Of a stretch of DNA of 34,606 bases, positions 66 through 14,233 are shown in pieces. The position numbers and the translations under genes were made by a program. Where the stretch lies: assembly GCA_012518415.1 (NCBI GenBank), contig JAAYSH010000037.1:1-34606 (forward strand), in the 5' to 3' direction. The notes under the pieces are model-generated. The model did not search any database and was not told the origin of the DNA. It saw only the letters and a program-made list of their open reading frames with translations. This stretch comes from Erysipelotrichaceae bacterium. Lineage in GTDB: Bacteria; Bacillota_I; Bacilli_A; RFN20; CAG-826. The first letter of the stretch is position 1. Every line of letters begins with the position of its first letter.

Positions 66-2822
66 TTAATTACCTCTTAGGAGTTTTTTGAACTCCTCGA
101 GCCCTTTCATGTCAAAATCATCGCCTTCGAGTTCATCGAGCATGGCCGCTAATTCAGATTCTGTATCAGCAATTTCATTATAGATATCACTTAAAGTTGC
201 TTCATATTTTAAGGACAGCATTTCAATTTGCTTAGATAATTCATCAACTAAATTATTAGGTAACATATATAGTTCATCGATCAAAGGAGTAATCCACTTT
301 TGTTTTAACAAATATAGGGCTCTTTCATCACTTAAAGATTTGATCATTTCTTGTGTATCTAAATCAATTTGTACAGTTTTTTCCTTAATATCAGCCTTAA
401 TACTCTTTTCATTATCTAACAATTTTTTTGCTTTGATAACATAATAAGGATACGTATTTTCCTCAAACTGATACTCATTAATAATTCGATTTATTTCTCT
501 AGTAACATTAGTTTTGCCAGGGGTTCCGTCACTATTTTTGACTATGTTCTCCCAGTTTTCAATATGATTTTTTTCAACAAACTCAAGTTTTTCTGCTTTT
601 TTTGCACCTGAATCATACAAAATCAAGTAGTTGTTAAGAACATCAAGTTCTGGGGATTCAATTTCTAATTTAAGACAATTTATTTCTTTATTTAACTCAG
701 TTACATTGAACTTAGTATAATCTTCTGAAATAAAACTCTTTTCTCTGTCATCTTCATCAAATTGTTCTATTAAATCAGTAATTTCTGTTCCGACTTCCTT
801 TAGTTCTTCTTCTAAGGCCGCAATTTCATTTACTTGCTCGCTTAACTCTTCTTGCTGAACTAATGTGAAAGGGAGCACTCTACCTTGCCATCCGTCTTGA
901 ACCTCATCGTTATTTTTATAGATCATTTTGGGATCAACTTTTTTGAGCGATTCAAAGCCTTCCTCTTGGATAATTTCTAAATCATTTGCAATCTCATACC
1001 ATCTCTCTGCAAATATTTGAAACGCGTCATATTTATCAATTAAATTAATGTTTTCAAAACGTCTAAATATTTCATCAGAAACTTTTATTTCGGTCCCTGC
1101 AATATTTATACTCATCGCTGAATCGATAAGATTTTCTTCTAAGAACTCGTCAAAATCATCAAAACTTTGTCTATAGTTATCATTGAAGTTGTTGATGTCA
1201 TCATTTTCATTAATTAGACTTTTAATATCTTTGGCTTTTAAAGAAACATAATTTTCATTAATTTCTTCAAATAATGCTCTTTTTAGGCTTGGAAATTCTT
1301 TCCAATATTGTTTAAGTTCGTTTACCTCTTGTTTTGGTATTCCGCCAAACATTAAGGAATAAATATCGTAAGTTTCCTTTTTGGTGCCTGAGTCAATATA
1401 ACGCGAAATATTTAGGTTATATTCATTTTCTCTAATTTTATCCAAAGAAACTAGTCTAGAGAAGTTTTCGATTTCCGCTCGATTTATAACTGTATCTGCG
1501 ATTCTTTTAATATCGCTTTCTCGTAATTTATTCTTATTGCCAGATTTAACAAAGTTTTTCGAAGCATCGATAAAATGAATATGATGTTCATCTTCTTCAA
1601 ATTCACCCTTTTTAAGAATCATAATGATTGTTGGAATGCCTGTCCCAAAGAAAATATTAGCAGGAAGGCCAATAACGGTTCGAATATTTCCGCGTTCTAC
1701 AAGGTTTTTTCTAATTTTTTGTTCTTCGCCACCTCTAAAAAGTACCCCGTGCGGTAAAACAATCGTAACAATTCCATCCGGCTTAATATGATATAAATCA
1801 TGTAATAAGAAAGCGTAGTCTGCCTTCGATTTAGGCGCGATTCCGTATTCAACGAATCGACTGTTGTTTATATTGTTTTTTGGCTCCCATTTAGCTGAAT
1901 AAGGCGGATTTGAAACAACCGCATCAACAAATACTGGCTCATATGTTCCTGCTGGATCTTCCTCATCAAAATATGGCCAATCTTCTGCTAGAGTATCACC
2001 TTGGCGTGCTTCGATGTTACTAACATTTATGCCTCGCATAATAAGGTTCATTCTTGTTAAGTTATATGTATTAGGTTCCAATTCTTGGGCATAATATTTG
2101 ATTTTATCCCGATCCTTCATTTGCCTTGAAACACTTTTACCAATGTTAATTAATAATGATCCTGATCCGCTTGTTGGATCATAAATTTTTATCTCATCTT
2201 TATCACGCAAGTGATGGGCTACTATTTCACTCATTAAAATTGATACTTCATTAGGAGTATAAAATTCTCCTGCTTTTTTTCCAGCATTAGCTGCAAAGTT
2301 ATGGATTAAATATTCATAAATAAATCCGAGCACATCATAATCATTACTACTTGTTGGAATATCTTTAATTAAATGGATTAAATCTCTGATTGCTTTTGAT
2401 TGTGCACTAGAAGTATCGCCTAATTTTGATAAACCAGTTTGAAGTGTTGAAAATATGTTTTTAAATAATTTCACATAGTTTCGATTATAAGTTCGATCGA
2501 ATGCACTTAAAGCATCCCTAACATCTGCTACTTGAAAATCAATTCCTTTATCGATCCATGATGAGAACAAATGTTCGTATGAAATAAAGTAACCGAGATT
2601 TTCCCTAATAAAATTAAATACATCTTTATTACTTTCTTCAACAGTTACAAGTTCTTCATCTTTCATTCCTGCTTTTATAGTTAAAAACTCAACTTCTTTA
2701 TCAGATAGAAATTTATAAAATATAAGTCCTAATATATAGTCCTTATATTCGCTTGCGTCGATCTTCGATCTCATTTTATTAGCAGATTCCCAAATTTTTG
2801 CTGCTAATTGTTGTTTGGTCAT
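66..2822 (-). CDS. hsdM: Type I R-M N6-adenine methyltransferase subunit, long form with C-terminal extension (918 aa)
   Basis: N-terminal HsdM domain (IWESANKMR..YKDYILGLIFYKFLS), GEFYTP, motif I DPTSGSGSLL, motif IV NPPY, VLPHGVLFRG, NLNISRY. SD AGGAGG. Followed by hsdS. Confidence 0.96.
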   Translation of the reverse strand: MTKQQLAAKIWESANKMRSKIDASEYKDYILGLIFYKFLSDKEVEFLTIKAGMKDEELVTVEESNKDVFNFIRENLGYFISYEHLFSSWIDKGIDFQVADVRDALSAFDRTYNRNYVKLFKNIFSTLQTGLSKLGDTSSAQSKAIRDLIHLIKDIPTSSNDYDVLGFIYEYLIHNFAANAGKKAGEFYTPNEVSILMSEIVAHHLRDKDEIKIYDPTSGSGSLLINIGKSVSRQMKDRDKIKYYAQELEPNTYNLTRMNLIMRGINVSNIEARQGDTLAEDWPYFDEEDPAGTYEPVFVDAVVSNPPYSAKWEPKNNINNSRFVEYGIAPKSKADYAFLLHDLYHIKPDGIVTIVLPHGVLFRGGEEQKIRKNLVERGNIRTVIGLPANIFFGTGIPTIIMILKKGEFEEDEHHIHFIDASKNFVKSGNKNKLRESDIKRIADTVINRAEIENFSRLVSLDKIRENEYNLNISRYIDSGTKKETYDIYSLMFGGIPKQEVNELKQYWKEFPSLKRALFEEINENYVSLKAKDIKSLINENDDINNFNDNYRQSFDDFDEFLEENLIDSAMSINIAGTEIKVSDEIFRRFENINLIDKYDAFQIFAERWYEIANDLEIIQEEGFESLKKVDPKMIYKNNDEVQDGWQGRVLPFTLVQQEELSEQVNEIAALEEELKEVGTEITDLIEQFDEDDREKSFISEDYTKFNVTELNKEINCLKLEIESPELDVLNNYLILYDSGAKKAEKLEFVEKNHIENWENIVKNSDGTPGKTNVTREINRIINEYQFEENTYPYYVIKAKKLLDNEKSIKADIKEKTVQIDLDTQEMIKSLSDERALYLLKQKWITPLIDELYMLPNNLVDELSKQIEMLSLKYEATLSDIYNEIADTESELAAMLDELEGDDFDMKGLEEFKKLLRGN

Positions 2823-2881: not shown

Positions 2882-2975
2882 TTTTATTTGTTATTTATTG
2901 CTAAAAACCACTTAAAAGAGTAAGACATTACAAAAAATTATGGTTATCGTTAAAATTATATATACAATTATATTT

Positions 2976-4409
2976 TTAAACAATGCTTTTATATAACTTT
3001 AAATAAGACTGCGCAGAGCGACTCCAAGTAAAGTCGCTTTTCATTGCATTTAATTGAAGCTTCTGCAAAAGTGGCTTGTTTTCATATGTATCTAGCGCTA
3101 AATCAGTTTGTTTTTCGATTTCGCTAACATCATAGTCAAAGAAACCAAACCCATTCGCCTTCTTAACATTACTACCATCATAGCCAATAATTGTATCTTT
3201 TAAACCTCCAGTATAGCGAACAATTGGTAACGTCCCATATCTACAGGCGATCATTTGACCAATACCACAGGGCTCAAATAAAGATGGCATAAAGAAGAAA
3301 TCCGCTCCTGCGTAAATTAAATGAGCGAGTTCATTCGAATAACCGATATATATACCAACTTGGCCGGGGAATTCGTTAATTAAATTATTAAGCATTTGTT
3401 CAACTTCATACTCCCCGCTACCTAGAGCAATAAAATAACCGCCTCTTCTAAGTGCCTTTCTTGCCCCAGCAATAATTAAATCAACTCCTTTTTGCCAAGT
3501 GAGTCTTGTAACAATTGCAAAGATCGGTGCATCACTAATGGGTAGATTAAACCGCTTTAATAGCGCATCATGGTTTTCGACCTTATTTTGTTTAAAGTCA
3601 GTTTTGCTGTAGTTTTTTGCGATTAATGGGTCTTTGCTTGGGTCAAACTCTTCATAATCAATCCCGTTAAGAATGCCGCTAAAATCATCTTTTCTTGAAA
3701 GAATGACATGTTCTAGTCCCTTTGCACCTTCTTTAGTTTGTAGTTCTAAAGCATGTGTCGGGGAGACAGTTGTTAGTTTATCCGCTGCATAAATGCCTGC
3801 TTTTAAACTACTAACCGAATCATAAAACTTAAAATGATAGTTATCTAATAGTTCGTAGGTTAAATGATAAAATTCCTGCGCTCTAAATACATCAAGCACT
3901 CCTTGAAAGGCGGGGTTATGAATTGTAAGTACCGTTTTCGTATTTTTATAAAAATCAACGTATTCACCATTATGTTTAATAAGTAACGGAAGCATGCCAA
4001 CTTGCCAATCATGAAGATGAATTAGATCAAGTTTGATATTTAGTTGCTTAAATAATTCAACACTTGCTCTTGTAAAAAAGGCGAAGCGTTCATCATCATC
4101 ACCATATGAATATAAACTTTCCCGGCCAAAATAAAACTCATTATCAATAAAATAAAAGGTAATTCCTTCGTGGTTAAGTTTATAAACATCAGCGTCTTGA
4201 TAGCGCCAGCCAAGGCGAAGTGAAATTTTGCGAACAAACTCAACCTTTAAATTAGGATGTTTTATTTTAATAAGTCGGTAGTAAGGAAGAACGATATATA
4301 CTTCTTCTTTCATTTTGACTAGTTCACGGCTTAGCGCATAAACAACGTCAGCAAGTCCACCTGTTTTTGCAAATGGATTTGATTCGCTAGTAATCATGGC
4401 AATTTTCAT
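2976..4409 (-). CDS. glgA: Glycogen synthase (GT5)
   Basis: KTGGLADV, HLHDWQ, TIHNPAFQG, RLTWQKG, PSLFEPCG. ATGA overlap with glgD. Confidence 0.96.
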   Translation of the reverse strand: MKIAMITSESNPFAKTGGLADVVYALSRELVKMKEEVYIVLPYYRLIKIKHPNLKVEFVRKISLRLGWRYQDADVYKLNHEGITFYFIDNEFYFGRESLYSYGDDDERFAFFTRASVELFKQLNIKLDLIHLHDWQVGMLPLLIKHNGEYVDFYKNTKTVLTIHNPAFQGVLDVFRAQEFYHLTYELLDNYHFKFYDSVSSLKAGIYAADKLTTVSPTHALELQTKEGAKGLEHVILSRKDDFSGILNGIDYEEFDPSKDPLIAKNYSKTDFKQNKVENHDALLKRFNLPISDAPIFAIVTRLTWQKGVDLIIAGARKALRRGGYFIALGSGEYEVEQMLNNLINEFPGQVGIYIGYSNELAHLIYAGADFFFMPSLFEPCGIGQMIACRYGTLPIVRYTGGLKDTIIGYDGSNVKKANGFGFFDYDVSEIEKQTDLALDTYENKPLLQKLQLNAMKSDFTWSRSAQSYLKLYKSIV

Positions 4410-5527
4410 ACTTCATCTCCTTGATCAATGTAAATTGGTGTTTTTTCATTAGACACAAGTTTTTTTGTATGAATGACTTTCGCCCGTTTATCAACGATTA
4501 CATTATTTAAATGCACATCAGGACCAATATATGAGTTTGAAAAGATAATTGAATTTTCAATAACTGCGCCTTTTTCGACCGTAACGTTACGAGAAATAAC
4601 CGAGCCTCTTACTTTACCAGCGATATATGCCCCATTAGCAACAAACGCATTTTGAACATCGGCGCTTTCTTCATATTGAGCGGGCGGAGTATCATGAGTT
4701 ACTGTATAAATTGGCCAGTCACTTTGAAATAATTGTTTTCTTGTCCGATAATTTAGCATCTCTAGTGAGGCCGCCTTGAAGTTTTCCATTGTATCGATAT
4801 AGCGAATAAAGCCTTTATACTCATATGTATGAATTACTTCATCTTTACCAACACTATAAAGTAAGTAATCATGAAGTCCAAACAGTGATGAAATTGCTTG
4901 TGACTTATCCATAATTTCTATTAACTTTGTTCGATTAATAATAAATGATTGGAGTGAAATATTCGCCTTATTAGACGTACCTTTATTTTCGATTAGTTCG
5001 ACTACTTCATTTTTATCGTTCAACTTAACAATTGAAGAGCCAATAAATGAGGTTTTTGCATTATCAACTTCTGAATAAATAAGAGTAATTTCCGCCTCAT
5101 TGGCGATATGTTCCTTTAAAACATCACGGTAATCAATTCGGGTAATAAAATGAGCGGGTGCAAATACGATATAATCGGCACTGCTGCGGTCAAGGACATA
5201 CATATTCGCGCGAATATTCGCAAAATCTGTATTATAGCGCTCACTACCACCAGAAGCAGCTTCATTAAACATTACCGTTTCATAACCAATCTTTGTATTT
5301 ACATTAAATGTATTACGTGAGCCTAAGTGTTTATTAACTGAGCGTTGATGCTTTTTAACTAAAATACCAATTTGATCGATGCCTGAGTTAACAAAATTTG
5401 ATAAAGGAAAGTCCATTAGGGCATAGCGACCTAAAAATGACAGTGTCGCCATTGGGCGCTCTTTCGTTAATGGTCCAATTTCAGGTGAATAGTGTAAATT
5501 TAAAAATCCAAATAATTTCTTATTCAT
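4406..5527 (-). CDS. glgD: Glucose-1-phosphate adenylyltransferase non-catalytic subunit
   Basis: LTKERPMATLSFLGRYALMDFPLSN, no GGxGxR motif, C-terminal hexapeptide beta-helix repeats, located between glgC and glgA. SD AAGGAGG spacing favours ATG 5527 over 5533. Confidence 0.92.
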   Translation of the reverse strand: MNKKLFGFLNLHYSPEIGPLTKERPMATLSFLGRYALMDFPLSNFVNSGIDQIGILVKKHQRSVNKHLGSRNTFNVNTKIGYETVMFNEAASGGSERYNTDFANIRANMYVLDRSSADYIVFAPAHFITRIDYRDVLKEHIANEAEITLIYSEVDNAKTSFIGSSIVKLNDKNEVVELIENKGTSNKANISLQSFIINRTKLIEIMDKSQAISSLFGLHDYLLYSVGKDEVIHTYEYKGFIRYIDTMENFKAASLEMLNYRTRKQLFQSDWPIYTVTHDTPPAQYEESADVQNAFVANGAYIAGKVRGSVISRNVTVEKGAVIENSIIFSNSYIGPDVHLNNVIVDKRAKVIHTKKLVSNEKTPIYIDQGDEV

Positions 5528-5538
5528 AATCATCCTCC

Positions 5539-6660
5539 TTAAATAGCAACAAGTTTAATATCATCGGGGGTACCGATAATTTTTGTTCCTTCTTTAATAA
5601 CTTGTTCCGGTCCAACAACGGCATAAGCAATTTCACAGTTTTTCTCAATAATAACATTGGGCATAATAACCGAATGCGTAACATGAGAATCTCCGTGGAC
5701 TTCTACTTCATTAAAGATAATTGAGTTACTAACTTCGCCTAAAATTATCGCGCCCTGGTTTGTAACGCTGTCTTTAATTCGTGCTTCTTTACCAATGTAC
5801 TGCGGTAAAGAGTTTGTATCTTCAGTATAAATTGGTTTACCTAAAATACCTTTTTCTTTTTTAACGGAGCCAATTTCATCAACGATATCCATGGAAGCGC
5901 GCCAATACGATGAGATTGTTCCAACATCTTTCCAATACCCATCAAATACATAAGCATAAATTTTGTCATTAGCTTTTAGTAAGGAAGGAATAATATTTTT
6001 ACCAAAGTCATGACTACTATTAGGATCGCGTGCATCTTCCATTAACGCTTCGCGAAGTCGCTTATAATTGAAAATATATATTCCCATTGAAGCAAGTGTT
6101 GACTTCGGTTTTGCAGGTTTTTCTTCAAAATCAATTACATAACCGTCTTCATTTGTAATCATAATTCCAAATCTTGATGCCTCTTCAAGTGAAACATCTA
6201 AGACGGCGATTGTTAGAGCGGCATCATTTTCAATATGGGCATTAAGCATTAGTTCATAGTCCATATGGTAAATATGGTCGCCTGATAAGATTAAGACATA
6301 CGCTGGGTCTTTTTCATCTAACCATTCTAAGTTTTGATAAATCGCATCCGCGGTTCCGGCATACCACGCTTGACCTTGGTCGGTTTGTCTTGGTGTTAGA
6401 GTTGCAGTTAGCGACCTAACTCCGTTTAACCCCCACTTTTCACCGTTACCGATATACGTATTTAAAAACGTTGATTCATATTGGGTTAAGACGCCAACGA
6501 TGTTAACGTTCGAGTTCGCACAGTTTGATAAGGTGTAATCGATAATTCGATATTTACCTCCAAACGAAATACCTGGTTTCGCATTTTTATGCGTTAAAGC
6601 AAGTAACCGCGACCCCTTACCGCCTGCAAGAATCATGCCAACTATTTTAGTTTTTGCCAT
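5539..6660 (-). CDS. glgC: Glucose-1-phosphate adenylyltransferase (ADP-glucose pyrophosphorylase)
   Basis: ILAGGKGSRL, AKPGISFGGKYRIID, GTADAIYQN, SGDHIY, FEEKP, YWKDVGT. SD GGGAGGAG. Confidence 0.96.
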   Translation of the reverse strand: MAKTKIVGMILAGGKGSRLLALTHKNAKPGISFGGKYRIIDYTLSNCANSNVNIVGVLTQYESTFLNTYIGNGEKWGLNGVRSLTATLTPRQTDQGQAWYAGTADAIYQNLEWLDEKDPAYVLILSGDHIYHMDYELMLNAHIENDAALTIAVLDVSLEEASRFGIMITNEDGYVIDFEEKPAKPKSTLASMGIYIFNYKRLREALMEDARDPNSSHDFGKNIIPSLLKANDKIYAYVFDGYWKDVGTISSYWRASMDIVDEIGSVKKEKGILGKPIYTEDTNSLPQYIGKEARIKDSVTNQGAIILGEVSNSIIFNEVEVHGDSHVTHSVIMPNVIIEKNCEIAYAVVGPEQVIKEGTKIIGTPDDIKLVAI

Positions 6661-7081
6661 AATACTCCTCCCTTGAATTATATTATTATGTTGTCATCTA
6701 TTGCTTACAATTATTTAAAATATTATTTCATCGGCTAAATTGCTCTTAGTCATTATAATCATCACTTTTTGAAAGGAGATTTTTTTAGCTTTGCAATATT
6801 TACTAGCAACTTTCGCAAAAGTTAATATTTTCACTTTCCAAACAAATTATTAGTGCTTTTACTTCTACTATTAGTTTACTACGTAATCAGCTAAATTTAA
6901 TGTCATTAACCTTCAAATCACTTAACTTTTTTTTAAAACATAAAATAACTGCGTTTTTTTCTAACAGTGTTTGAAAAACTTAATTTTTTATCCTGACTTA
7001 GAAGATAAATTATTCAAATACAGCAATAAAACTAAAAATATTCACTAAATCTCACGGTAACAACATGTGATGCTCATAATT

Positions 7082-10000
7082 TTAATTTAAAACAAGCTTA
7101 TCTTCTTCTGCATATAAGCGAACATGGGAAGCGTTCCGGCCACGTAAGACAACAAGTGTTTCATCAACGTGTTCACTAATATCAGCGATTTTATCACTTG
7201 GGGCTGATACAATTGCTTGTAAGTTAAACTTTCTTAGTAACTTAATTGATTCACGGATTCGTCCACTGTCCATTTTTGAAAACGCTTCGTCAAAAATAAT
7301 TAAGCGGACCGTGTCCCCAAGTGTTCCTGTTTCATTAACGTGATATAGTTGGGCAAATGAAGCGAGGACGGAGATATAAAATGGTGTTTGCGTTTCTCCA
7401 CCTGATTTTTTCTTAATCATTTTTGATAGACGCTGCGAGCGACCTTCTTTATCTTTAACAACAAGATCAAAGTCTAAATAAGAACGATAATCGGTTAGTC
7501 GTTCAACATTTTTAAGGACTGCTGCACTTGTTTCTTCTTCATTACCAGAAACGATTTGGGCAAATAGTTCTTTCATTAAATTATCGTATTTTTCTAAGAA
7601 TCTTGTATCATCTTCATCAATTTCTAATAATAAATCATCAGTAATCATCTCATAATACGGTAAGTATGTTGATGAGGGTCTCACACTAAATTGGTAAGAG
7701 TCACTACCAAATGTTGAGGCACTTAGTGCATAGTTTAAATCTTCGATTTGATCTTCAACTGTTTCAATCGCTCCCCGAAGTTTAGCGATAAAGTCAGTTC
7801 TAAATTGATGGACAGCTTTAGAGTAAGCGTCATTAATTTTACCTTCATATTCAGGTAGTTTAACTTCGGAAAAGTCACTAAGTTCATCATCATAAATCTC
7901 ATTATCACTCTTATCAATATCGTATGTAAGCCGGTATTCGCGGACATAGTCACGGCGCTCTTTTTGGAGTGTTGAAAAAAGATTATTAACTAAGTACTGC
8001 GAATGCGTAACTTTGACGTTATATTCAGTAATAATTTCTAACGGTGATTTCCCGGCTTCGATTAACTCATTAAATGCTGGTTCAGCGACTTCAGCAATTA
8101 AAAACGGATCATATAGGGAGTTAATTCTTGTTTCGCGCTCATGAATGAGTTTTTCTTCGGCGGGAATTTTTTCTTCACGTAAGTTTGCAACAAGGTTCGT
8201 TAACTTACCTTTTTCTTCAAAGTATGTATTTTGACTTTGCTGCATTGCTGCAATATCTTCATCGATATCATCGATGCGCTTTTGCAGTGAATCTAGCTGC
8301 GCGGTATCATATTTTTCTAACTCTTCTTCTAAATAAGCGATATTTTTCTCAAGACCGCTGATCTTTTTAATATTTTCTAGAGAAACAATTGTTGCCGCGA
8401 TTTCGTTAGAGTTAATAATTTCTAACCGGTTACCTTCATCAATTGGGCGGGAAAGTGCGGTTAATTTATTATTTAGCGAGACGAGATTAGCAATTTCTTT
8501 TTCTTTTGCTTGAAGTTGCTCTTCACCAATTGAACGGCCAATAAAATGTTCAGCATAAAGTCTTGGGTTAAGTTTGCCAAACCCAAAGTTACGGTATAAA
8601 TCACCGTCTTTTGTGATCCCGTTACCGGAATTTCTTGCTGCTTGAATATTACTTGCTTTATGGAGCCGGCCTATGAGGAAGTTCGTGTAGGCTCTTGCAC
8701 CTTCATGGTTAGTAATAATCTCCGTTGCAAGCGAATTATGTTCAGCGACATAACCACGTTCGATAATTCTTGAATCATCGACTAAAGTCGTACCGTAGTA
8801 GTTTTCTTTATCAAGTAAGTTACGAAGTATTTCATAAGCTTCAAGATAATAAGTTGGATCAACGAATAAATTGAATTTTTGATTATGTAAAAATCCTTCA
8901 ATCGCATTCGCCCACTCTTCACTTTTAATATCGACTAAGTCAGCATATATGTCGACTTTAATATCTTTATTATGGCGGCGTGATAGTTCATCTTCAAGCG
9001 CACGCCGAATCGACGTTAATTTCCACTGGTATGATTTGCCGCCTTGTTTCATATCAATTAATTGCTGGCGTAGCAGGGCAAGTTTTTGCGAATTCTCGTT
9101 AATACTTTGACCAAGTGTTAAAGCGAATTTTGCTAGTGAGTCTTTAAATTTAACTAAACTATCGCGCCAGTTATGGAGTGATTCGCTCGAAAGTGAAAAC
9201 AAATCTTTTAACCCCTGGTCACGGAGCGCAAGACTTAAATTTAGGACCTCCGTTGCTTGATCTTGAAGTTCATCAAGTAAAGTAACATTTGCCCGAGAAA
9301 AAATTGAAACATCAACTTTACGTAATTCATCACTTAAAGACTGGGTAACTGCACTAAAAGATGCGATATAACGCGTTAAGTTACTTTGAATTAAGTCAGC
9401 TTCTTTATTAAGTGCATCTAAGTCTTTTTGCGCAGTTTCTTTTTGTTCGAGTAATTCATCGCGGAGCCGATATGTATCTGACATCGCTTTATCTTGAATT
9501 AAGCGCATTTTCTTGCGGTTTAATTCTTGAATATTAGTCTCTGCTTCTTTAACGTCATCATCGATTAAAGCAAGCCGCGCATTCGCTTGTTCAACTTCTT
9601 TTTTATAAGCTTCAAGCCGCTTTAAATCATTCGCATAGCCCGCTTTTTCAACGATATATGAGTTAACTTGCATATTATTATTTTCGCTAACATAGCGGTT
9701 ATGAATATCTTTGATTTTTTCGAGTCTTTCTACACGTTTACGCATATGTTGAGCTTCAACTTCAAGTTTACGGTACTGCATAATATTTTCTTGCATCGGG
9801 GCAATATCAATATTATCTTGCGGATCACAAACATATTCAGTAATAAATGTCGTAATATCAGTAATTGGTGAAAAAGAAACTGATTTCTTTAAAAGTGAGA
9901 AATACTTGTCTTTTAGTCCGCCGAATTGCCGTTTTAAAAATGATTGATACTGACGGTTAGAATCAAAGAAATTAAATTTATTTGGATAATGTTCACCTAA

Positions 10001-10462
10001 GTACTTATTAAGTGTTTTATAATCCATCGGAATATTATTTAAAATAAATTCGTTTTCCGGCATCGTGTCTTCTAAAACAAAGAAGCGATGTTCATGGGAA
10101 CCATCTTCATAAGAGTCAAATACTCCGCCTAAAACAAAATATGTATCATCAAGTGTATTTTTAAATTCAAGGGCAATATAACTTGTAAACCGACCGTTGC
10201 GTAAATAGTGGAAGCCGCCATCAACCGCATCACCTAGTTCACCACGAAGATAACCGCGTAATGTTCGGTTTGATTTATCCATCGCTGCTTTATTAAAGAA
10301 GCGACCACTTGTATCACCAAGCAAAACAACTTGAAGGGCGTCGATTAAAGTCGACTTACCCGAGGCGTTTAATCCAGTCAGGAAGTTTATTTGTTGGAAA
10401 TCAATCGTTTCATTCCAAAAATAATGCCAGTTGATTATTTTCATTTTTGTTAATAGTTTCAT
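7082..10462 (-). CDS. jetC: SMC-family ATPase, Wadjet JetC / MksB type (1126 aa)
   Basis: Walker A GLNASGKST, FNKAA..RTLRGYLRG, long coiled coils, signature KSGGETQTPFY, Walker B/D-loop LIIFDEAFSKMD. ATGA-coupled to the upstream gene. Confidence 0.9.
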   Translation of the reverse strand: MKLLTKMKIINWHYFWNETIDFQQINFLTGLNASGKSTLIDALQVVLLGDTSGRFFNKAAMDKSNRTLRGYLRGELGDAVDGGFHYLRNGRFTSYIALEFKNTLDDTYFVLGGVFDSYEDGSHEHRFFVLEDTMPENEFILNNIPMDYKTLNKYLGEHYPNKFNFFDSNRQYQSFLKRQFGGLKDKYFSLLKKSVSFSPITDITTFITEYVCDPQDNIDIAPMQENIMQYRKLEVEAQHMRKRVERLEKIKDIHNRYVSENNNMQVNSYIVEKAGYANDLKRLEAYKKEVEQANARLALIDDDVKEAETNIQELNRKKMRLIQDKAMSDTYRLRDELLEQKETAQKDLDALNKEADLIQSNLTRYIASFSAVTQSLSDELRKVDVSIFSRANVTLLDELQDQATEVLNLSLALRDQGLKDLFSLSSESLHNWRDSLVKFKDSLAKFALTLGQSINENSQKLALLRQQLIDMKQGGKSYQWKLTSIRRALEDELSRRHNKDIKVDIYADLVDIKSEEWANAIEGFLHNQKFNLFVDPTYYLEAYEILRNLLDKENYYGTTLVDDSRIIERGYVAEHNSLATEIITNHEGARAYTNFLIGRLHKASNIQAARNSGNGITKDGDLYRNFGFGKLNPRLYAEHFIGRSIGEEQLQAKEKEIANLVSLNNKLTALSRPIDEGNRLEIINSNEIAATIVSLENIKKISGLEKNIAYLEEELEKYDTAQLDSLQKRIDDIDEDIAAMQQSQNTYFEEKGKLTNLVANLREEKIPAEEKLIHERETRINSLYDPFLIAEVAEPAFNELIEAGKSPLEIITEYNVKVTHSQYLVNNLFSTLQKERRDYVREYRLTYDIDKSDNEIYDDELSDFSEVKLPEYEGKINDAYSKAVHQFRTDFIAKLRGAIETVEDQIEDLNYALSASTFGSDSYQFSVRPSSTYLPYYEMITDDLLLEIDEDDTRFLEKYDNLMKELFAQIVSGNEEETSAAVLKNVERLTDYRSYLDFDLVVKDKEGRSQRLSKMIKKKSGGETQTPFYISVLASFAQLYHVNETGTLGDTVRLIIFDEAFSKMDSGRIRESIKLLRKFNLQAIVSAPSDKIADISEHVDETLVVLRGRNASHVRLYAEEDKLVLN

Positions 10463-11091
10463 ACTTGTTCCCTTTCTTCCTCGCGAAGTGCTAGTGCGTC
10501 AAGTGTTTCACCCATTGTGACAATTTGCTCGTTAGATACAGCAAATGTAATTGATGGGAGTAAATAAAAGGCGACGTTACCTTGGTCATAAGAGCCACTA
10601 ACTTTGGCGATAATATTGTAATCAGCAAGTATTCTTAAGGCACGGCCAATTAAGCGGCCACTAAGTCTTCTTCCAGGTAGCGTAATTCCGCGGTCATACA
10701 TTACTTGTAGGACATGCGGAGTCGTTATATATAGTGATTCGCCCGTCTGCGCACTTTCGGAGCGTTCATTTTCATAAATTAAGCGTAAGACAAACGCGAT
10801 TAAACTTGTTTCGCGGTCAAGTTTAACCCGGTTATATTCATAATCATTTGATAAAGAAAATACACCCATAATTAAATCTCGTTCCAATGAGTAACCAATA
10901 AATGATAAGTAATCAGAGACAAGGTCATAGTTTTCCTCTAAGAAACGAAAATCTGGGTTAATTTTAATTGTTTTTGCCCGTGTGTCATATAAATCACGGA
11001 CAATAAACGATGTTGATAATAAGTTGTTTACCGCTTTAGCAAAATTATTTTGATCGCTTTGCGATAATTCAATAAAACGTTCTTCAAACAT
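10459..11091 (-). CDS. jetB: Wadjet JetB / MksE-like KITE subunit (DUF4194-like, about 210 aa)
   Basis: Size and position between jetA and jetC. Sequence pattern YLSFIGYSL..D..GV, SLIAFVLRLIYE, YLLPSI. Start moved to ATG 11091, 1 nt after the jetA stop, with AAAGGAG upstream. Confidence 0.82.
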   Translation of the reverse strand: MFEERFIELSQSDQNNFAKAVNNLLSTSFIVRDLYDTRAKTIKINPDFRFLEENYDLVSDYLSFIGYSLERDLIMGVFSLSNDYEYNRVKLDRETSLIAFVLRLIYENERSESAQTGESLYITTPHVLQVMYDRGITLPGRRLSGRLIGRALRILADYNIIAKVSGSYDQGNVAFYLLPSITFAVSNEQIVTMGETLDALALREEEREQV

Positions 11092-11092
11092 A

Positions 11093-12523
11093 TTAGGCTT
11101 CGAGCTCCTTTCGCTTAAAAGTGAAATTTGGGATGCGGTATTTACCATTAACGACATAATCTTCATGGTCTTCTACCGTATAAAATGATGTTTCATCATT
11201 ATTTTTTAACGAGGCTAAAATAAGTAAAATAAAAGCATCGAAATCGACAAGCGGAATTTCTTCAGCTTTTAAAATCGATGAATCGCCAAAGGCTGTTTCC
11301 ATAAAATCATAAACTCTGGCGTCGGTAAAAATATTCCGTGTTTCATCAAGAAATCCTTCCATTAGCATCGTTGAGACATCATCATAATCAACAATTGGGA
11401 GTGGTTCACCGACTTCACGGTATTTCCTCACGATTGGATACATAAGTGAATCACTACCGATATATCCTTGTTTCGTTAAATTAACAGCTTTTTGCATATT
11501 TGTTAAAATCGGACCTAAGTTATCTTCATTAACAACTTTTTCTGCATATGCTTTAAAAATTGTATCTAAATGACCTTTAATTGTTTTATCGGTGTTATTT
11601 AAATATAAAATCTTTGATGACATCGCTTTTGTGTAATCTTGGTGGCGCATGTCAATTTCATCGATCATATTTGAAAGCGTTTCATACATATCGCATATAT
11701 AGTTGATTTTTTCGATCAAATCTCTTTCTGCTTCTTCATCATCAAGCCGACGATTCCAAACTTTCGCCTGCTTAATTAGTGTTTCCCGTGTTTCACGGTC
11801 ATATAGCCAGCGCTGTAAAATTGAAATAATTGGTCGTTTAAATTTTGCAACACTATCAAAAGTCTTTAATGGGTGATAATAGCGGTCACTAACATATTCT
11901 TTATAATTATCAAAATAATCACGGAGAATATTATTTGTTGAAAAGACGCGGCCAAGCCGGTTTTGATAAATGCGAATTGAATGACCGAGTGTGACTAATT
12001 CGGTACGGAGTTTTTTCGTGTTTTCATAGGCACGTAAAAGCGTCGCGTACATGAATTCATCCGGTTCATCATCTTCGAGCCGTAATTCACTGTAAGTCGC
12101 GTGCACTAAGGAAACGTATTTTGCCTCTTCATCACTTGTTAATTTATAAAGTAATTCCATAAAGGCGATTGAGTATGTAGGTAGCGCGATATATTCTTCT
12201 AAAGACCGAGAATCAATTTCAACTTCAAACCAACCTGTCTCTTCAAGCCGGCGGACGATATAAGCAGTTTTAGTTGCAAGTGTTTGCTTACTTTCTAAAT
12301 ACTCATCTTCATCATCTTCATCAAGGTCTTCTTCAACAATATACGCCATGATTTGGTTCGTTGCTTTTTCTCTTAAAGCACGAAGATAATCACTTTTTTT
12401 AATACTCATTTCATCACTTTCAAGTGATTCGTATAAAACTAGGAGGGCATCTACGTATATTTCTCGGTTAGGACTAGCTAAAACGGAGAAAAAGTTTCCT
12501 GGTACCAAATTATAAAGCCGCAT
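11093..12523 (-). CDS. jetA: Wadjet JetA / MksF-like kleisin (DUF5716-like, 476 aa)
   Basis: N-terminal VPxNFFSVLASPNRxIYVDAL and IVRRLEETGW winged-helix motif, YHPLKT. First gene of a coupled three-gene operon ending in an SMC ATPase. SD GGAGGAG. Confidence 0.82.
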   Translation of the reverse strand: MRLYNLVPGNFFSVLASPNREIYVDALLVLYESLESDEMSIKKSDYLRALREKATNQIMAYIVEEDLDEDDEDEYLESKQTLATKTAYIVRRLEETGWFEVEIDSRSLEEYIALPTYSIAFMELLYKLTSDEEAKYVSLVHATYSELRLEDDEPDEFMYATLLRAYENTKKLRTELVTLGHSIRIYQNRLGRVFSTNNILRDYFDNYKEYVSDRYYHPLKTFDSVAKFKRPIISILQRWLYDRETRETLIKQAKVWNRRLDDEEAERDLIEKINYICDMYETLSNMIDEIDMRHQDYTKAMSSKILYLNNTDKTIKGHLDTIFKAYAEKVVNEDNLGPILTNMQKAVNLTKQGYIGSDSLMYPIVRKYREVGEPLPIVDYDDVSTMLMEGFLDETRNIFTDARVYDFMETAFGDSSILKAEEIPLVDFDAFILLILASLKNNDETSFYTVEDHEDYVVNGKYRIPNFTFKRKELEA

Positions 12524-12550
12524 TTAATCTCCTCCACGTATTCTGGTCTA

Positions 12551-12559
12551 ATTTTAACA
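12551..12559 (-). promoter_or_regulatory. Extended -10 promoter (TG-T-TAAAAT) for jetABC
   Basis: Minus strand reads TGTTAAAAT 27 nt upstream of the jetA ATG. Confidence 0.5.
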
Positions 12560-12730
12560 TATTAAAGTGGTTTTTGTAGTACTTTTTTAACAATTTCATC
12601 CTTATTTTTTCGATTATTTTCTCAATGTTTTTTATTATTTAACTTTGTCTTAATTTTTTTTCGTTTTTAGTTGTTTTAAGTGGTTTAAAACTTAAGCGAA
12701 ATTTATCCAAAAAATGTTTATACGAAGTTA

Positions 12731-12739
12731 TGTTATACT
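12731..12739 (+). promoter_or_regulatory. Extended -10 promoter (TG-T-TATACT)
   Basis: TGTTATACT just before SD GGAGG and ATG 12757. Confidence 0.55.
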
Positions 12740-12756
12740 AGTTGCGGAGGAAAGTC

Positions 12757-13203
12757 ATGAAATTATACCCAAGTGCAACAAAAACTCTACTTATGCATTT
12801 ACTCGTCGGCGGAGTAACTTCCGTCTTGTTTTTTTTACTATTTGGCTACCCTTATTCACCCTTTGACCCAGCGAAACATATACTTCTACTTGTCATTCCC
12901 CTTGTTATTGCACTTATTATCGCTTTAGTTGCAATAAGGACGACGTCATATGAAATTAACAAGAAGAAAATTATCCACCGTAGGGGTAGAAAAGTTTATG
13001 AATATAAGTTTTCGATGATTGTATATGTTGATGATGAATATACAAGGAAACATAAAATATTAAGATTTTATACGAATAAGGGTGATGAAATCTTTTTACC
13101 ACTTGATAAGAATATGTTACTTTATGAAATTGTTCAAAAAAACGTTGGCTATTTATGGAGTTTTGAACAACTAAAAGAAAAATTCCCAAAAGCAAGCAAA
13201 TAA
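12757..13203 (+). CDS. Hypothetical membrane protein, 2 N-terminal TM helices plus a basic beta-rich (PH-like) domain
   Basis: Two hydrophobic segments followed by YEINKKKIIHRRG..YEYKFSMI. SD GGAGG favours ATG 12757 over TTG 12742. The domain call is pattern inference only. Confidence 0.7.
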   Translation: MKLYPSATKTLLMHLLVGGVTSVLFFLLFGYPYSPFDPAKHILLLVIPLVIALIIALVAIRTTSYEINKKKIIHRRGRKVYEYKFSMIVYVDDEYTRKHKILRFYTNKGDEIFLPLDKNMLLYEIVQKNVGYLWSFEQLKEKFPKASK

Positions 13204-13213
13204 AATGTTTATG

Positions 13214-13242
13214 TTTACATTTACATAAGTTAATGGTAGTAT
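13214..13242 (+). promoter_or_regulatory. Sigma-A-like promoter of rpmB
   Basis: TTTACA (13214-19), 17 nt spacer containing TG, TAGTAT (13237-42). Confidence 0.65.
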
Positions 13243-13277
13243 TCTAAACGTTAAGCGAATTACACGGAGGTGAGATT

Positions 13278-13472
13278 ATGAGCAGAAAATGTCCAATTAC
13301 AAATAAAGGTCCACAAACAGGAAATAAACGGTCAAGATCACTACGGGCAACAAGGCGAAGTTGGGGCGTTAATGTCCAACCTTTTAAAGTTGAAGTAAAT
13401 GGCCGGATGAAAACTGTCCATATGAGCGCTAGAGCATATCGTTCTCTCACAAAATCACAACGTGGTCGCTAG
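13278..13472 (+). CDS. rpmB: 50S ribosomal protein bL28
   Basis: MSRKCPITNKGPQTGNKRS..ATRRSWGVNVQ..SARAYRS. SD GGAGGTG. Convergent to the rpe operon, as in Bacillus. Confidence 0.96.
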   Translation: MSRKCPITNKGPQTGNKRSRSLRATRRSWGVNVQPFKVEVNGRMKTVHMSARAYRSLTKSQRGR

Positions 13473-13488
13473 TAATTTATTTGTATAT

Positions 13489-13520
13489 AAAAATAACGCT
13501 CAATCGAGCGTTTTTTTTAT
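13489..13520. terminator. Intrinsic terminator, likely bidirectional
   Basis: AACGCTC-AATC-GAGCGTT stem followed by a T-run and preceded by an A-run, between convergent genes. Confidence 0.8.
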
Positions 13521-13543
13521 TGCCTAAATATATTTAAATGAAC

Positions 13544-14233
13544 TTAAAAGTAAACTAAATTAATAATATTTATAATAATAAATAAAGCCGCATTAACTAA
13601 AATAACTAACCATTCCGTATATGCTGGTGCATAATTATTCGGCCTCGTAATATCTAAGACGCCGTCTTGGCGAATGCGTTTATCAACGATTGTATATTTA
13701 TATAAATTTGGATTAACAATAAGTATGATCGTCACAAATGCGGGTATGTAAGTAATGATTGCAGTAAGACCAGAGTAGTGGTTACCGCCAAATAAATTAA
13801 AATAATGTGTACCTAAAAGTGATGATACCCCAATAACAGCAATTACATTAATGCCCATAACAACTAAACGAAGCCGTGGGTATTTAAGTGTTAATACAAA
13901 TAATAAAAACTGCGTACCCCCAATAATAACCCATAAGATTGAACCAATTATTTGGGTGACATTACTTATTTCATTCATTGCTGCGAGTTTATCAAAGTAA
14001 AAGTAGCCAAATGCCATCATACTTAAAGATATCCCGCCAACAAAAATATAATGAAACGGGACAAACCATCTTTTTGCACCTTGGGCAAGTTCAAAGGGAA
14101 ATAAATTTCTAAATGAGTACTTCCGCTTTTGGAGCAAGTTAAACGCATTCGTACCAAAAATTAATTCAAGTGCAAATAAAATGACAAAAAGTCCAAGGAT
14201 AAACGTAAATGTAGATTGACTAGTTGCGCCCAT
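13544..14233 (-). CDS. Hypothetical polytopic membrane protein (about 6 TM)
   Basis: 229 aa with about six hydrophobic segments. Overlaps the rpe end. SD AAAGGA. Confidence 0.75.
   Translation of the reverse strand: MGATSQSTFTFILGLFVILFALELIFGTNAFNLLQKRKYSFRNLFPFELAQGAKRWFVPFHYIFVGGISLSMMAFGYFYFDKLAAMNEISNVTQIIGSILWVIIGGTQFLLFVLTLKYPRLRLVVMGINVIAVIGVSSLLGTHYFNLFGGNHYSGLTAIITYIPAFVTIILIVNPNLYKYTIVDKRIRQDGVLDITRPNNYAPAYTEWLVILVNAALFIIINIINLVYF

Follow-up and report, generated by a model that had tools for sequence, protein, structure and literature searches.

A nuclease-free, Wadjet-derived JetABC operon as a candidate chromosomal SMC complex in an order of Bacilli in which Smc-ScpAB was not found

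We analysed a 34,606-bp stretch of DNA from an Erysipelotrichaceae bacterium (contig JAAYSH010000037.1, hereafter the window; C69 in our numbering), which belongs to a genome of 956,844 bp in 78 contigs with an estimated completeness of 96.27% and contamination of 0.33%. The window carries an operon of three genes, jetA, jetB, and jetC, encoding the kleisin, KITE, and structural maintenance of chromosomes (SMC) subunits of a type I Wadjet system, without the gene for the JetD nuclease. We consider it probable that jetABC encodes a nuclease-free, Wadjet-derived complex of the MksBEF/MukBEF kind that acts on the chromosome. The operon was most likely taken into the core gene set, and passed on by vertical descent, in a lineage of uncultured Bacilli that have small genomes and no Smc-ScpAB. 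An earlier reading of this DNA from its letters alone (the sequence-only reading) had proposed a domesticated condensin; each computational check that was run favoured this proposal, in which the function is predicted from sequence.

The jetA gene (11093..12523, minus strand) encodes an MksF-like kleisin of 476 amino acids, which matched the Pfam family JetA (PF18982) at E 5e-95 over residues 30-472 and the PADLOC model JetA1 with 437 bits. The product of jetB (10459..11091, minus strand) is an MksE-like KITE protein of 210 amino acids that matched DUF4194 of Pfam at E 3e-15, MksE weakly, and JetB1 with 207 bits. The third gene, jetC (7082..10462, minus strand), encodes an MksB-like SMC ATPase of 1126 amino acids with Pfam matches to AAA_29 and SbcC_Walker_B and a JetC1 score of 1129 bits. 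The best PADLOC models of all three proteins are thus those of type I Wadjet. A start of jetB at 11166, given by the open reading frame (ORF) caller, was rejected after alignment with 80 homologues, which placed the start at the ATG at 11091. Because the jetA/jetB junction reads TAA-t-ATG and jetB and jetC overlap in ATGA, the three genes are translationally coupled. The operon is therefore a type I Wadjet core, intact and with its genes translationally coupled, and the kleisin-KITE-SMC order named in the sequence-only reading was borne out by the ORFs, the Pfam and PADLOC matches, and the junction sequences. The ATPase motifs of JetC, which that reading had called intact, are indeed so: Walker A (GLNASGKST), the signature (SGGETQ), and Walker B with the D-loop (FDEAFSKMD) are present and at least 90% conserved in each of four groups in an alignment of 81 JetC sequences. 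The solved chains nearest to JetC were the JetC of 9qxt_A and 8as8_A (E 1e-15 to 1e-16), and a sequence search of JetA against solved structures gave no match at E 0.001.

JetD was not found in the genome. The Pfam families JetD_C and DUF3322 had no match at E up to 1. A hidden Markov model (HMM) was built from 26 JetD sequences and run unfiltered on all six-frame pieces of the genome; its best hit (E 0.83, 8.8 bits) lay outside the spacer between jetC and glgC, and no match was obtained within this spacer in any frame. The spacer (6661..7081, 421 bp) is the position of JetD in Wadjet operons; it is non-coding and AT-rich, with the glgC ribosome-binding site and a promoter-like site at 6710-6682. 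The earlier statement that no Toprim ORF or remnant is recognisable there thus agrees with the HMM result. Among the relatives, 80 related loci were found, 71 of them family-like (L038-L108). Seven of these were dropped for a short flank or a partial jetC, and JetD was absent from all of the remaining 64, which combine a complete jetC with no less than 1.5 kb of downstream sequence. A cognate jetD in the genome or beside the operon in close relatives, which the sequence-only reading had named among the findings that would speak against it, was accordingly not seen.

JetD does occur elsewhere in the order. JetD_C was detected in 14 of 151 genomes of the order (11 over the cut-off) and in 8 of 101 genomes of the family, and the JetD copies that could be inspected adjoin a second jetABC that is divergent, its JetC sharing 25-29% identity with that of the window (G006, G050, G012, G052, G073, G200, G112, G136, G164, G175, and G209). 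These JetD-linked copies fall into other JetC clades and are near-identical across families (L150_f7, L153_f5, and L148_f1; L133_f33 and L152_f7), the JetC identity between families being 96% for L150/L153 and 87% for L133/L152. Near-identical JetABCD in different families indicates recent horizontal transfer of the armed system, and on this comparison the JetD-linked second copies look mobile. One genome contains a decaying second Wadjet copy (G037 contig C32, about 2965-5026), in which JetA is split in two frames and JetD contains a stop, and the JetD-less operon is intact there. The N-terminal IFDR motif of JetB, named as a JetD contact in the accessible part of PMC10586767, was tried as a discriminator and rejected as uninformative, the N-termini of JetD-linked and JetD-less forms being alike in these Firmicute sequences.

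Subsequently to be considered is Smc-ScpAB, which the sequence-only reading supposed to have been replaced. In the window's genome ScpA, ScpB, and SMC_hinge had no match, the Smc profile TIGR02168 gave nothing above 26 bits, and JetC itself scored below TIGR02168 and SMC_hinge. SMC_N matched only ORFs of RecF size (361 amino acids), of RecN size (554 amino acids), and of the ABC type. Of 101 family genomes from 48 genera, none had Smc at E 1e-20 and none had ScpB. Among 151 genomes representing 8 families of the order, none had TIGR02168 over the cut-off (best score 55 bits vs a cut-off of 567), and none had ScpA over its cut-off. The genomes are samples and mostly metagenome-assembled, and absence here means not found in those searched. 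Since the same searches picked up Smc in 9-11 of 14 controls and in every sampled genome of many sister families (15/15, 12/12, and 20/20 in three of them), the method finds Smc when it is present. SMC_hinge was rejected as an Smc marker in the order: 33 of the 151 genomes match, each time 2.5-3.6 kb from JetA on the same contig and hence inside jetC, and the three matches opened with Pfam were JetA-JetB-JetC operons whose JetC bears a weak hinge match. The window's genome keeps a ParB homologue (282 amino acids, ParB_N E 8e-16; G000 contig C75:5248-5499, L172) despite the lack of Smc; in Bacillus subtilis, ParB loads Smc.

The distribution of the operon in the order was examined with JetA as the marker. 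JetA occurs in 125 of 151 genomes and, outside the window's own family (f1), in 107 of 110; by family the counts are 11/11 in f2, 41/41 in f3, 2/2 in f4, 12/12 in f5, 1/1 in f6, 29/31 in f7, 11/12 in f8, and 17/40 in f1. With the window's JetC as the query, a match was obtained in 38 of 101 family genomes, 34 of them at 47-100% identity. Presence of jetABC is consistent within genera (17 of the 48 family genera), and in every family of the order the JetD-less orthologues are of full length. A tree of 81 JetC sequences (IQ-TREE, LG+G4, quick search), which includes only 6 of the 71 loci L038-L108, grouped the order's JetD-less copies into a single clade with 100% support, a long stem, and starred family-specific subclades. 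To judge from this tree, which follows the families and answers a comparison proposed in the sequence-only reading, jetABC is a vertically inherited, order-wide core gene set. Six Clostridial JetABCD operons (L109-L113 and L117), with JetD directly downstream and 39-42% identity, lie inside that same clade. With JetC alone, a single clade of the 33 JetD-less rows was disfavoured (delta lnL 20, p-AU 0.018), in a comparison whose group was named post hoc and for which long branches and composition bias were flagged. A quick tree of concatenated JetA, JetB, and JetC gave a four-way split and did not resolve where the Clostridial operons stand relative to the order's families.

The surroundings of the operon are also conserved. 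In f1 the order is rpe/rsgA/pknB, orf229, rpmB, orf153, jetABC, and glgC-glgD-glgA; the arrangement jetABC-glgCD(A) is common to f1, f3, and f7, and 57 of the 64 relatives' loci have glgC no more than 1.5 kb downstream of jetC. In the remaining families the operon has different neighbours, again housekeeping genes throughout (pheT, asnB, rsmE, and others). A scan of 44 ORFs flanking the operon at 23 loci revealed no recurrent nuclease or consistently linked gene, the ORFs being housekeeping or mutually unrelated. In family f33 (L131 and L134) a JetD-less operon is located between the GTPase gene ychF and the cell-division gene sepF. Genus g25 of f1 (L158-L162) carries a divergent JetD-less jetABC, whose JetC is about 25% identical to that of the window and branches in the tree as the sister of the mobile JetD-linked copies; the 11 genomes of this genus that were sampled yielded no JetD. 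In L159 the operon is preceded by an ORF (3-2822) of 939 amino acids with AAA_11/AAA_12 helicase and REase_MTES_1575 domains, which could be an alternative effector.

We estimated dN/dS (omega) by the Nei-Gojobori method for 18 close pairs chosen from the tree. In nine f1 pairs with unsaturated dS, omega was 0.007-0.041 for jetA, 0-0.044 for jetB, and 0.011-0.052 for jetC; one f1 pair was saturated and uninformative. The corresponding values in the same pairs were 0-0.089 for glgC, glgD, glgA, rpe, rsgA, and pknB and 0.053-0.103 for orf153, and three JetD-linked pairs gave 0.02-0.16. Furthermore, in a comparison with a same-genus relative, JetA, JetB, and JetC were 79, 86, and 76% identical, GlgC, GlgD, and GlgA 74, 66, and 59%, and RsgA and PknB 63 and 62%. 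The operon is under strong purifying selection, at the omega level of its housekeeping neighbours. Its codon usage is native: CGN codons make up 54 of 64 arginine codons in jetC and 28 of 36 in priA, the score for synonymous usage in the genome places jetA at the 81st and jetC at the 65th percentile, and GC at third codon positions (GC3) is mid-range. The few arginine codons that had been spot-checked from the letters gave the same picture on full counting, and synteny with rpmB and glgC, codon usage, and low dN/dS, all proposed there as checks, favour a domesticated complex.

The rest of the window is mainly housekeeping. Downstream of jetC, beyond the 421-bp spacer, lies glgC (5539..6660, minus strand; NTP_transferase, E 1e-66), the first gene of glgC-glgD-glgA. 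Upstream of jetA a divergent intergenic region of 218 bp (12524..12741), presumed from the ORF layout to hold the operon promoter, separates the operon from orf153 (12742..13203, plus strand), which is outside the system and encodes 153 amino acids with two hydrophobic segments in its translation and no Pfam match; rpmB (13278-13472) follows. The earlier estimates of about 420 bp and about 230 bp for the flanks were therefore close. A promoter and terminator scan found 30 sites vs 28.9 expected from shuffling and singled out no consensus promoter upstream of jetA, and an Rfam scan of the window gave no family at threshold. The remaining genes include rpe, rsgA, a Ser/Thr kinase and a PP2C phosphatase, rlmN, priA, gmk, ppa, and gdh. 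The exception is hsdM (66-2822, minus strand), just past glgA, which encodes a type I methyltransferase of 918 amino acids (N6_Mtase and HsdM_N; PADLOC MTase_I, 1133 bits). With 31.6% GC, a GC3 at the 11th percentile of the genome, and AGA in 17 of 34 arginine codons, the last in line with the earlier remark on its codons, hsdM was probably acquired horizontally.

Two studies supplied RNA-library contigs, and a further run is of unrecorded kind; at 95-100% identity, contigs from these sources span the jetB/jetC junction and portions of jetA and jetC. They are not counted as evidence of expression, as DNA may be present in such libraries and contigs cannot show transcripts, and no finding is attached to the part of the spacer that they leave uncovered (6770-7043). 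Near-identical contigs over 5400-13600 of the window come from two biogas-fermenter metatranscriptome libraries (two studies) and one further run, and the biogas-fermenter contigs suggest an anaerobic-digester habitat.

We also examined the pattern in the class. Among 200 scored genomes, Smc was found in 111 and ScpB in 110, with near-identical family tallies, and JetA in 52; related genomes are not independent, and these counts are given without a statistical test. Eight of the 12 families with little or no Smc carry JetA (f19 15/15, f33 4/4, f26 5/5, f10 5/8, f7 3/3, f8 1/1, f31 1/1, and f1 4/16), and among the 16 Smc-bearing families JetA is present in most genomes only in f12 (10/12). The loci fetched from f19 (6), f10 (4), f26 (3), f33 (3), and f31 (1) are all JetD-less, and in f19, f10, and f26 several of the genomes sampled consist of one contig. 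In the JetC tree the JetD-less groups of the class form separate clades interleaved with JetD-linked ones, and six state changes or more are required by the starred branches. We raise, tentatively, the possibility that Smc-ScpAB was replaced repeatedly in Bacilli by JetD-less Wadjet-group complexes. On this view no fewer than five distinct JetC clades without JetD would each be fixed in a group that lacks Smc and ScpB, namely the window's order, f19, f10, f26 with f33 and f31, and genus g25. The window's order, with about 40% identity to the nuclease-armed Clostridial JetABCD, would then represent a still-living stage of the route from defence to condensin by which MukBEF has been proposed to arise.

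Several observations weigh against a domesticated chromosomal complex, beside the sampled nature of the genomes mentioned above. The JetA, JetB, and JetC proteins of the window are still about 40% identical to those of the nuclease-armed Clostridial JetABCD, and no feature of the sequence was found to tell JetD-less forms from JetD-linked ones. An orthologue of jetABC is retained by only 34 of the 101 genomes of the family, and about 60% of f1 is without the operon. In all five jetABC-less f1 genomes examined, which are 97-100% complete (L178-L182, corresponding to G026, G039, G024, G048, and G019), the site is conserved and only jetABC is missing. The neighbourhood from priA to rpe/orf229 abuts glgC-glgD-glgA, rpmB is matched in three of the five, orf153 stands next to glgC in three (L178, L179, and L181), and the gap between glgC and the closest flanking gene upstream is 130-430 bp; the three genes have been cleanly excised. 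No other MksB-like SMC was found in these five genomes, the best AAA_29 matches scoring 28-31 bits vs 60 for JetC and falling on ORFs of 290-570 and of about 890-920 amino acids. Judged by these profile searches, the jetABC-less relatives appear to carry no SMC complex at all. Because about 60% of f1 has deleted jetABC and then appears to carry no SMC complex, jetABC is not indispensable. The distribution, which the sequence-only reading expected not to be patchy, thus fits it outside f1, where the operon is near-universal, and not inside f1.

The class adds two further points of this kind. Families f16, f22, f24, and f25 have neither Smc nor JetA (0/8, 0/13, 0/12, and 0/1 for each of the two), and ScpB is absent from them save in one of the 13 f22 genomes; such families may be without any known SMC complex, or these profiles may have missed theirs. 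Since these four families have neither, loss of Smc does not require a JetABC substitute. In f12, Smc and ScpB are present in 12 of 12 genomes, yet a JetD-less jetABC is kept (L137, L138, L140, L142, L143, and L146), and several genomes have a separate JetABCD as well (compare L136, L139, L141, L145, and L147). In four f12 genomes a JetA match lies about 16-25 kb from smc on the same contig, and in three of them (G267, G303, and G224) it was matched to the JetD-less locus. Because f12 has both, the operon is not tied to Smc loss, and JetABC without a nuclease can coexist with Smc-ScpAB.

A mechanism can be outlined by analogy. As in the solved type I Wadjet and MukBEF complexes, described in the accessible parts of PMC10586767 and PMC7617805, the kleisin JetA, together with a dimer of the KITE protein JetB, would close a JetC dimer. 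Pairing of the JetABC units would probably run via the N-termini of JetA, and the extrusion of DNA loops would be driven by ATP. On a chromosome of about 1 Mb, the expected outcome would be compaction and help in segregation rather than cutting, because there is no JetD and nothing else in the complex to cut DNA. We infer the architecture, the loop extrusion, and the chromosomal role from these related complexes. Since the comparative picture fits a domesticated nuclease-free SMC complex, we favour a chromosomal core role over a defence island or a decaying remnant.

It is unlikely, in our estimate, that jetABC still serves in plasmid defence, either without a nuclease, for instance through full extrusion, compaction, or mis-segregation of small circular DNA, or with the help of an unlinked and unrelated effector recruited in trans. 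Every profile does assign the proteins to a type I Wadjet core, the JetC ATPase is intact, the closest JetD-bearing relatives are only about 60% diverged, and part of the family has lost the operon without replacement, as accessory genes are lost. However, inheritance that is near-universal and congruent with the families (107/110 outside f1), together with omega at the housekeeping level, is unusual for defence systems, and the JetD-linked copies in the same genomes differ precisely in being mobile and in having higher omega. The JetD-less operon of g25 beside a helicase-REase gene indicates that effectors may be swapped in the family; in the 44 flanking ORFs of 23 loci, by contrast, no gene is consistently linked. 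Furthermore, restriction needs all four subunits, as stated in the accessible text of PMC10586767.

A chromosomal task narrower than global compaction, such as replisome positioning, repair, or sister resolution at the terminus, draws on the same conservation evidence as the wider role. Mycobacterial MksB was reported to position the replication machinery (PMC11329512, in the part accessible), the f33 operon between ychF and sepF fits such a task, and dispensability in many relatives fits an auxiliary role. Nevertheless, the sequence points to no specific partner and the gene context varies between families, and we regard a restriction to such a task as rather improbable. That jetABC is a decaying JetABCD remnant on its way to pseudogenisation is hardly credible: JetD is missing and the whole operon is lost in many family members, but the three ORFs are intact with invariant catalytic motifs, omega is 0.00-0.05, full-length orthologues occur in every family of the order, codon usage is native, and the JetABCD copy that is truly decaying (G037 contig C32) looks different.

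Smc-ScpAB is usually seen as the near-universal folder of bacterial chromosomes, and the textbook case of its replacement is MukBEF of enterobacteria. In the present data, Smc, ScpA, and ScpB went undetected throughout one order of Bacilli and in several more families of the class, and most of these groups keep a nuclease-free Wadjet core operon. If these complexes fold chromosomes, the proposed change from a plasmid-defence SMC complex to a condensin would have been replicated in nature several times independently. In the window's order the distance to armed relatives is still small enough for the changes that matter to be sought, and the jetABC-less relatives would be natural examples of bacteria without any SMC complex.

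Among known systems, MksBEF of Pseudomonas aeruginosa resembles the operon of the window in being a kleisin-KITE-SMC operon of the Wadjet group without MksG/JetD. The two differ in that the window proteins score as type I Wadjet and not as a separate Mks family. In addition, P. aeruginosa keeps Smc-ScpAB alongside MksBEF, whereas no Smc-ScpAB was found in the window's genome or in the 151 genomes of the order. Type I Wadjet JetABCD, represented by E. coli GF4-3 JET (PDB 8as8 and 9qxt) and by the Clostridial operons L109-L113 and L117, has the same three core families, gene order, and coupling. Unlike JetABCD, the operon of the window has no JetD in the operon, in the genome, or in close relatives, and it shows core inheritance and not that of a mobile defence island.

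MukBEF of E. coli and its relatives follows the same evolutionary pattern as that proposed here: according to the accessible parts of PMC10586767 and PMC7617805, it is a Wadjet-group member without a nuclease that replaced Smc-ScpAB in an ancestor of enterobacteria. In sequence the two are distant. Unlike in MukBEF, the match of the Pfam MukB N-terminal family to JetC reached only 19.7 bits, below the cut-off of 23, and neither the MukF nor the MukE family matched at E 0.001. The operon of the window's lineage is an event independent of MukBEF, in Bacillota.

Several members of the Wadjet group without MksG/JetD are described in the accessible part of PMC7617805, in which Burmann et al. (2025, Cell) catalogued MksG-less 'FEB' operons (Data S1). 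A member of the window's clade, JAFLUZ010000005.1 (our L094), whose JetC is 56-57% identical to that of the window, is listed there. The operon of the window has the features of this category, that is, a kleisin-KITE-SMC set without MksG/JetD that behaves as a chromosomal core gene set, save for the secondary loss in f1. In the accessible part the catalogue gives operon structure only, and the absence of Smc-ScpAB, order-wide inheritance, and selection are not stated there for this lineage. A full-text literature search, whose coverage did not extend to the possibly relevant Figure S1A of PMC7617805, found no paper linking the operon of this lineage to the absence of Smc-ScpAB. Taken together, the kind of system is known and the operon of the clade was already catalogued, and it is the order-wide link to the absence of Smc-ScpAB and the repeated pattern in Bacilli that are worth following up.

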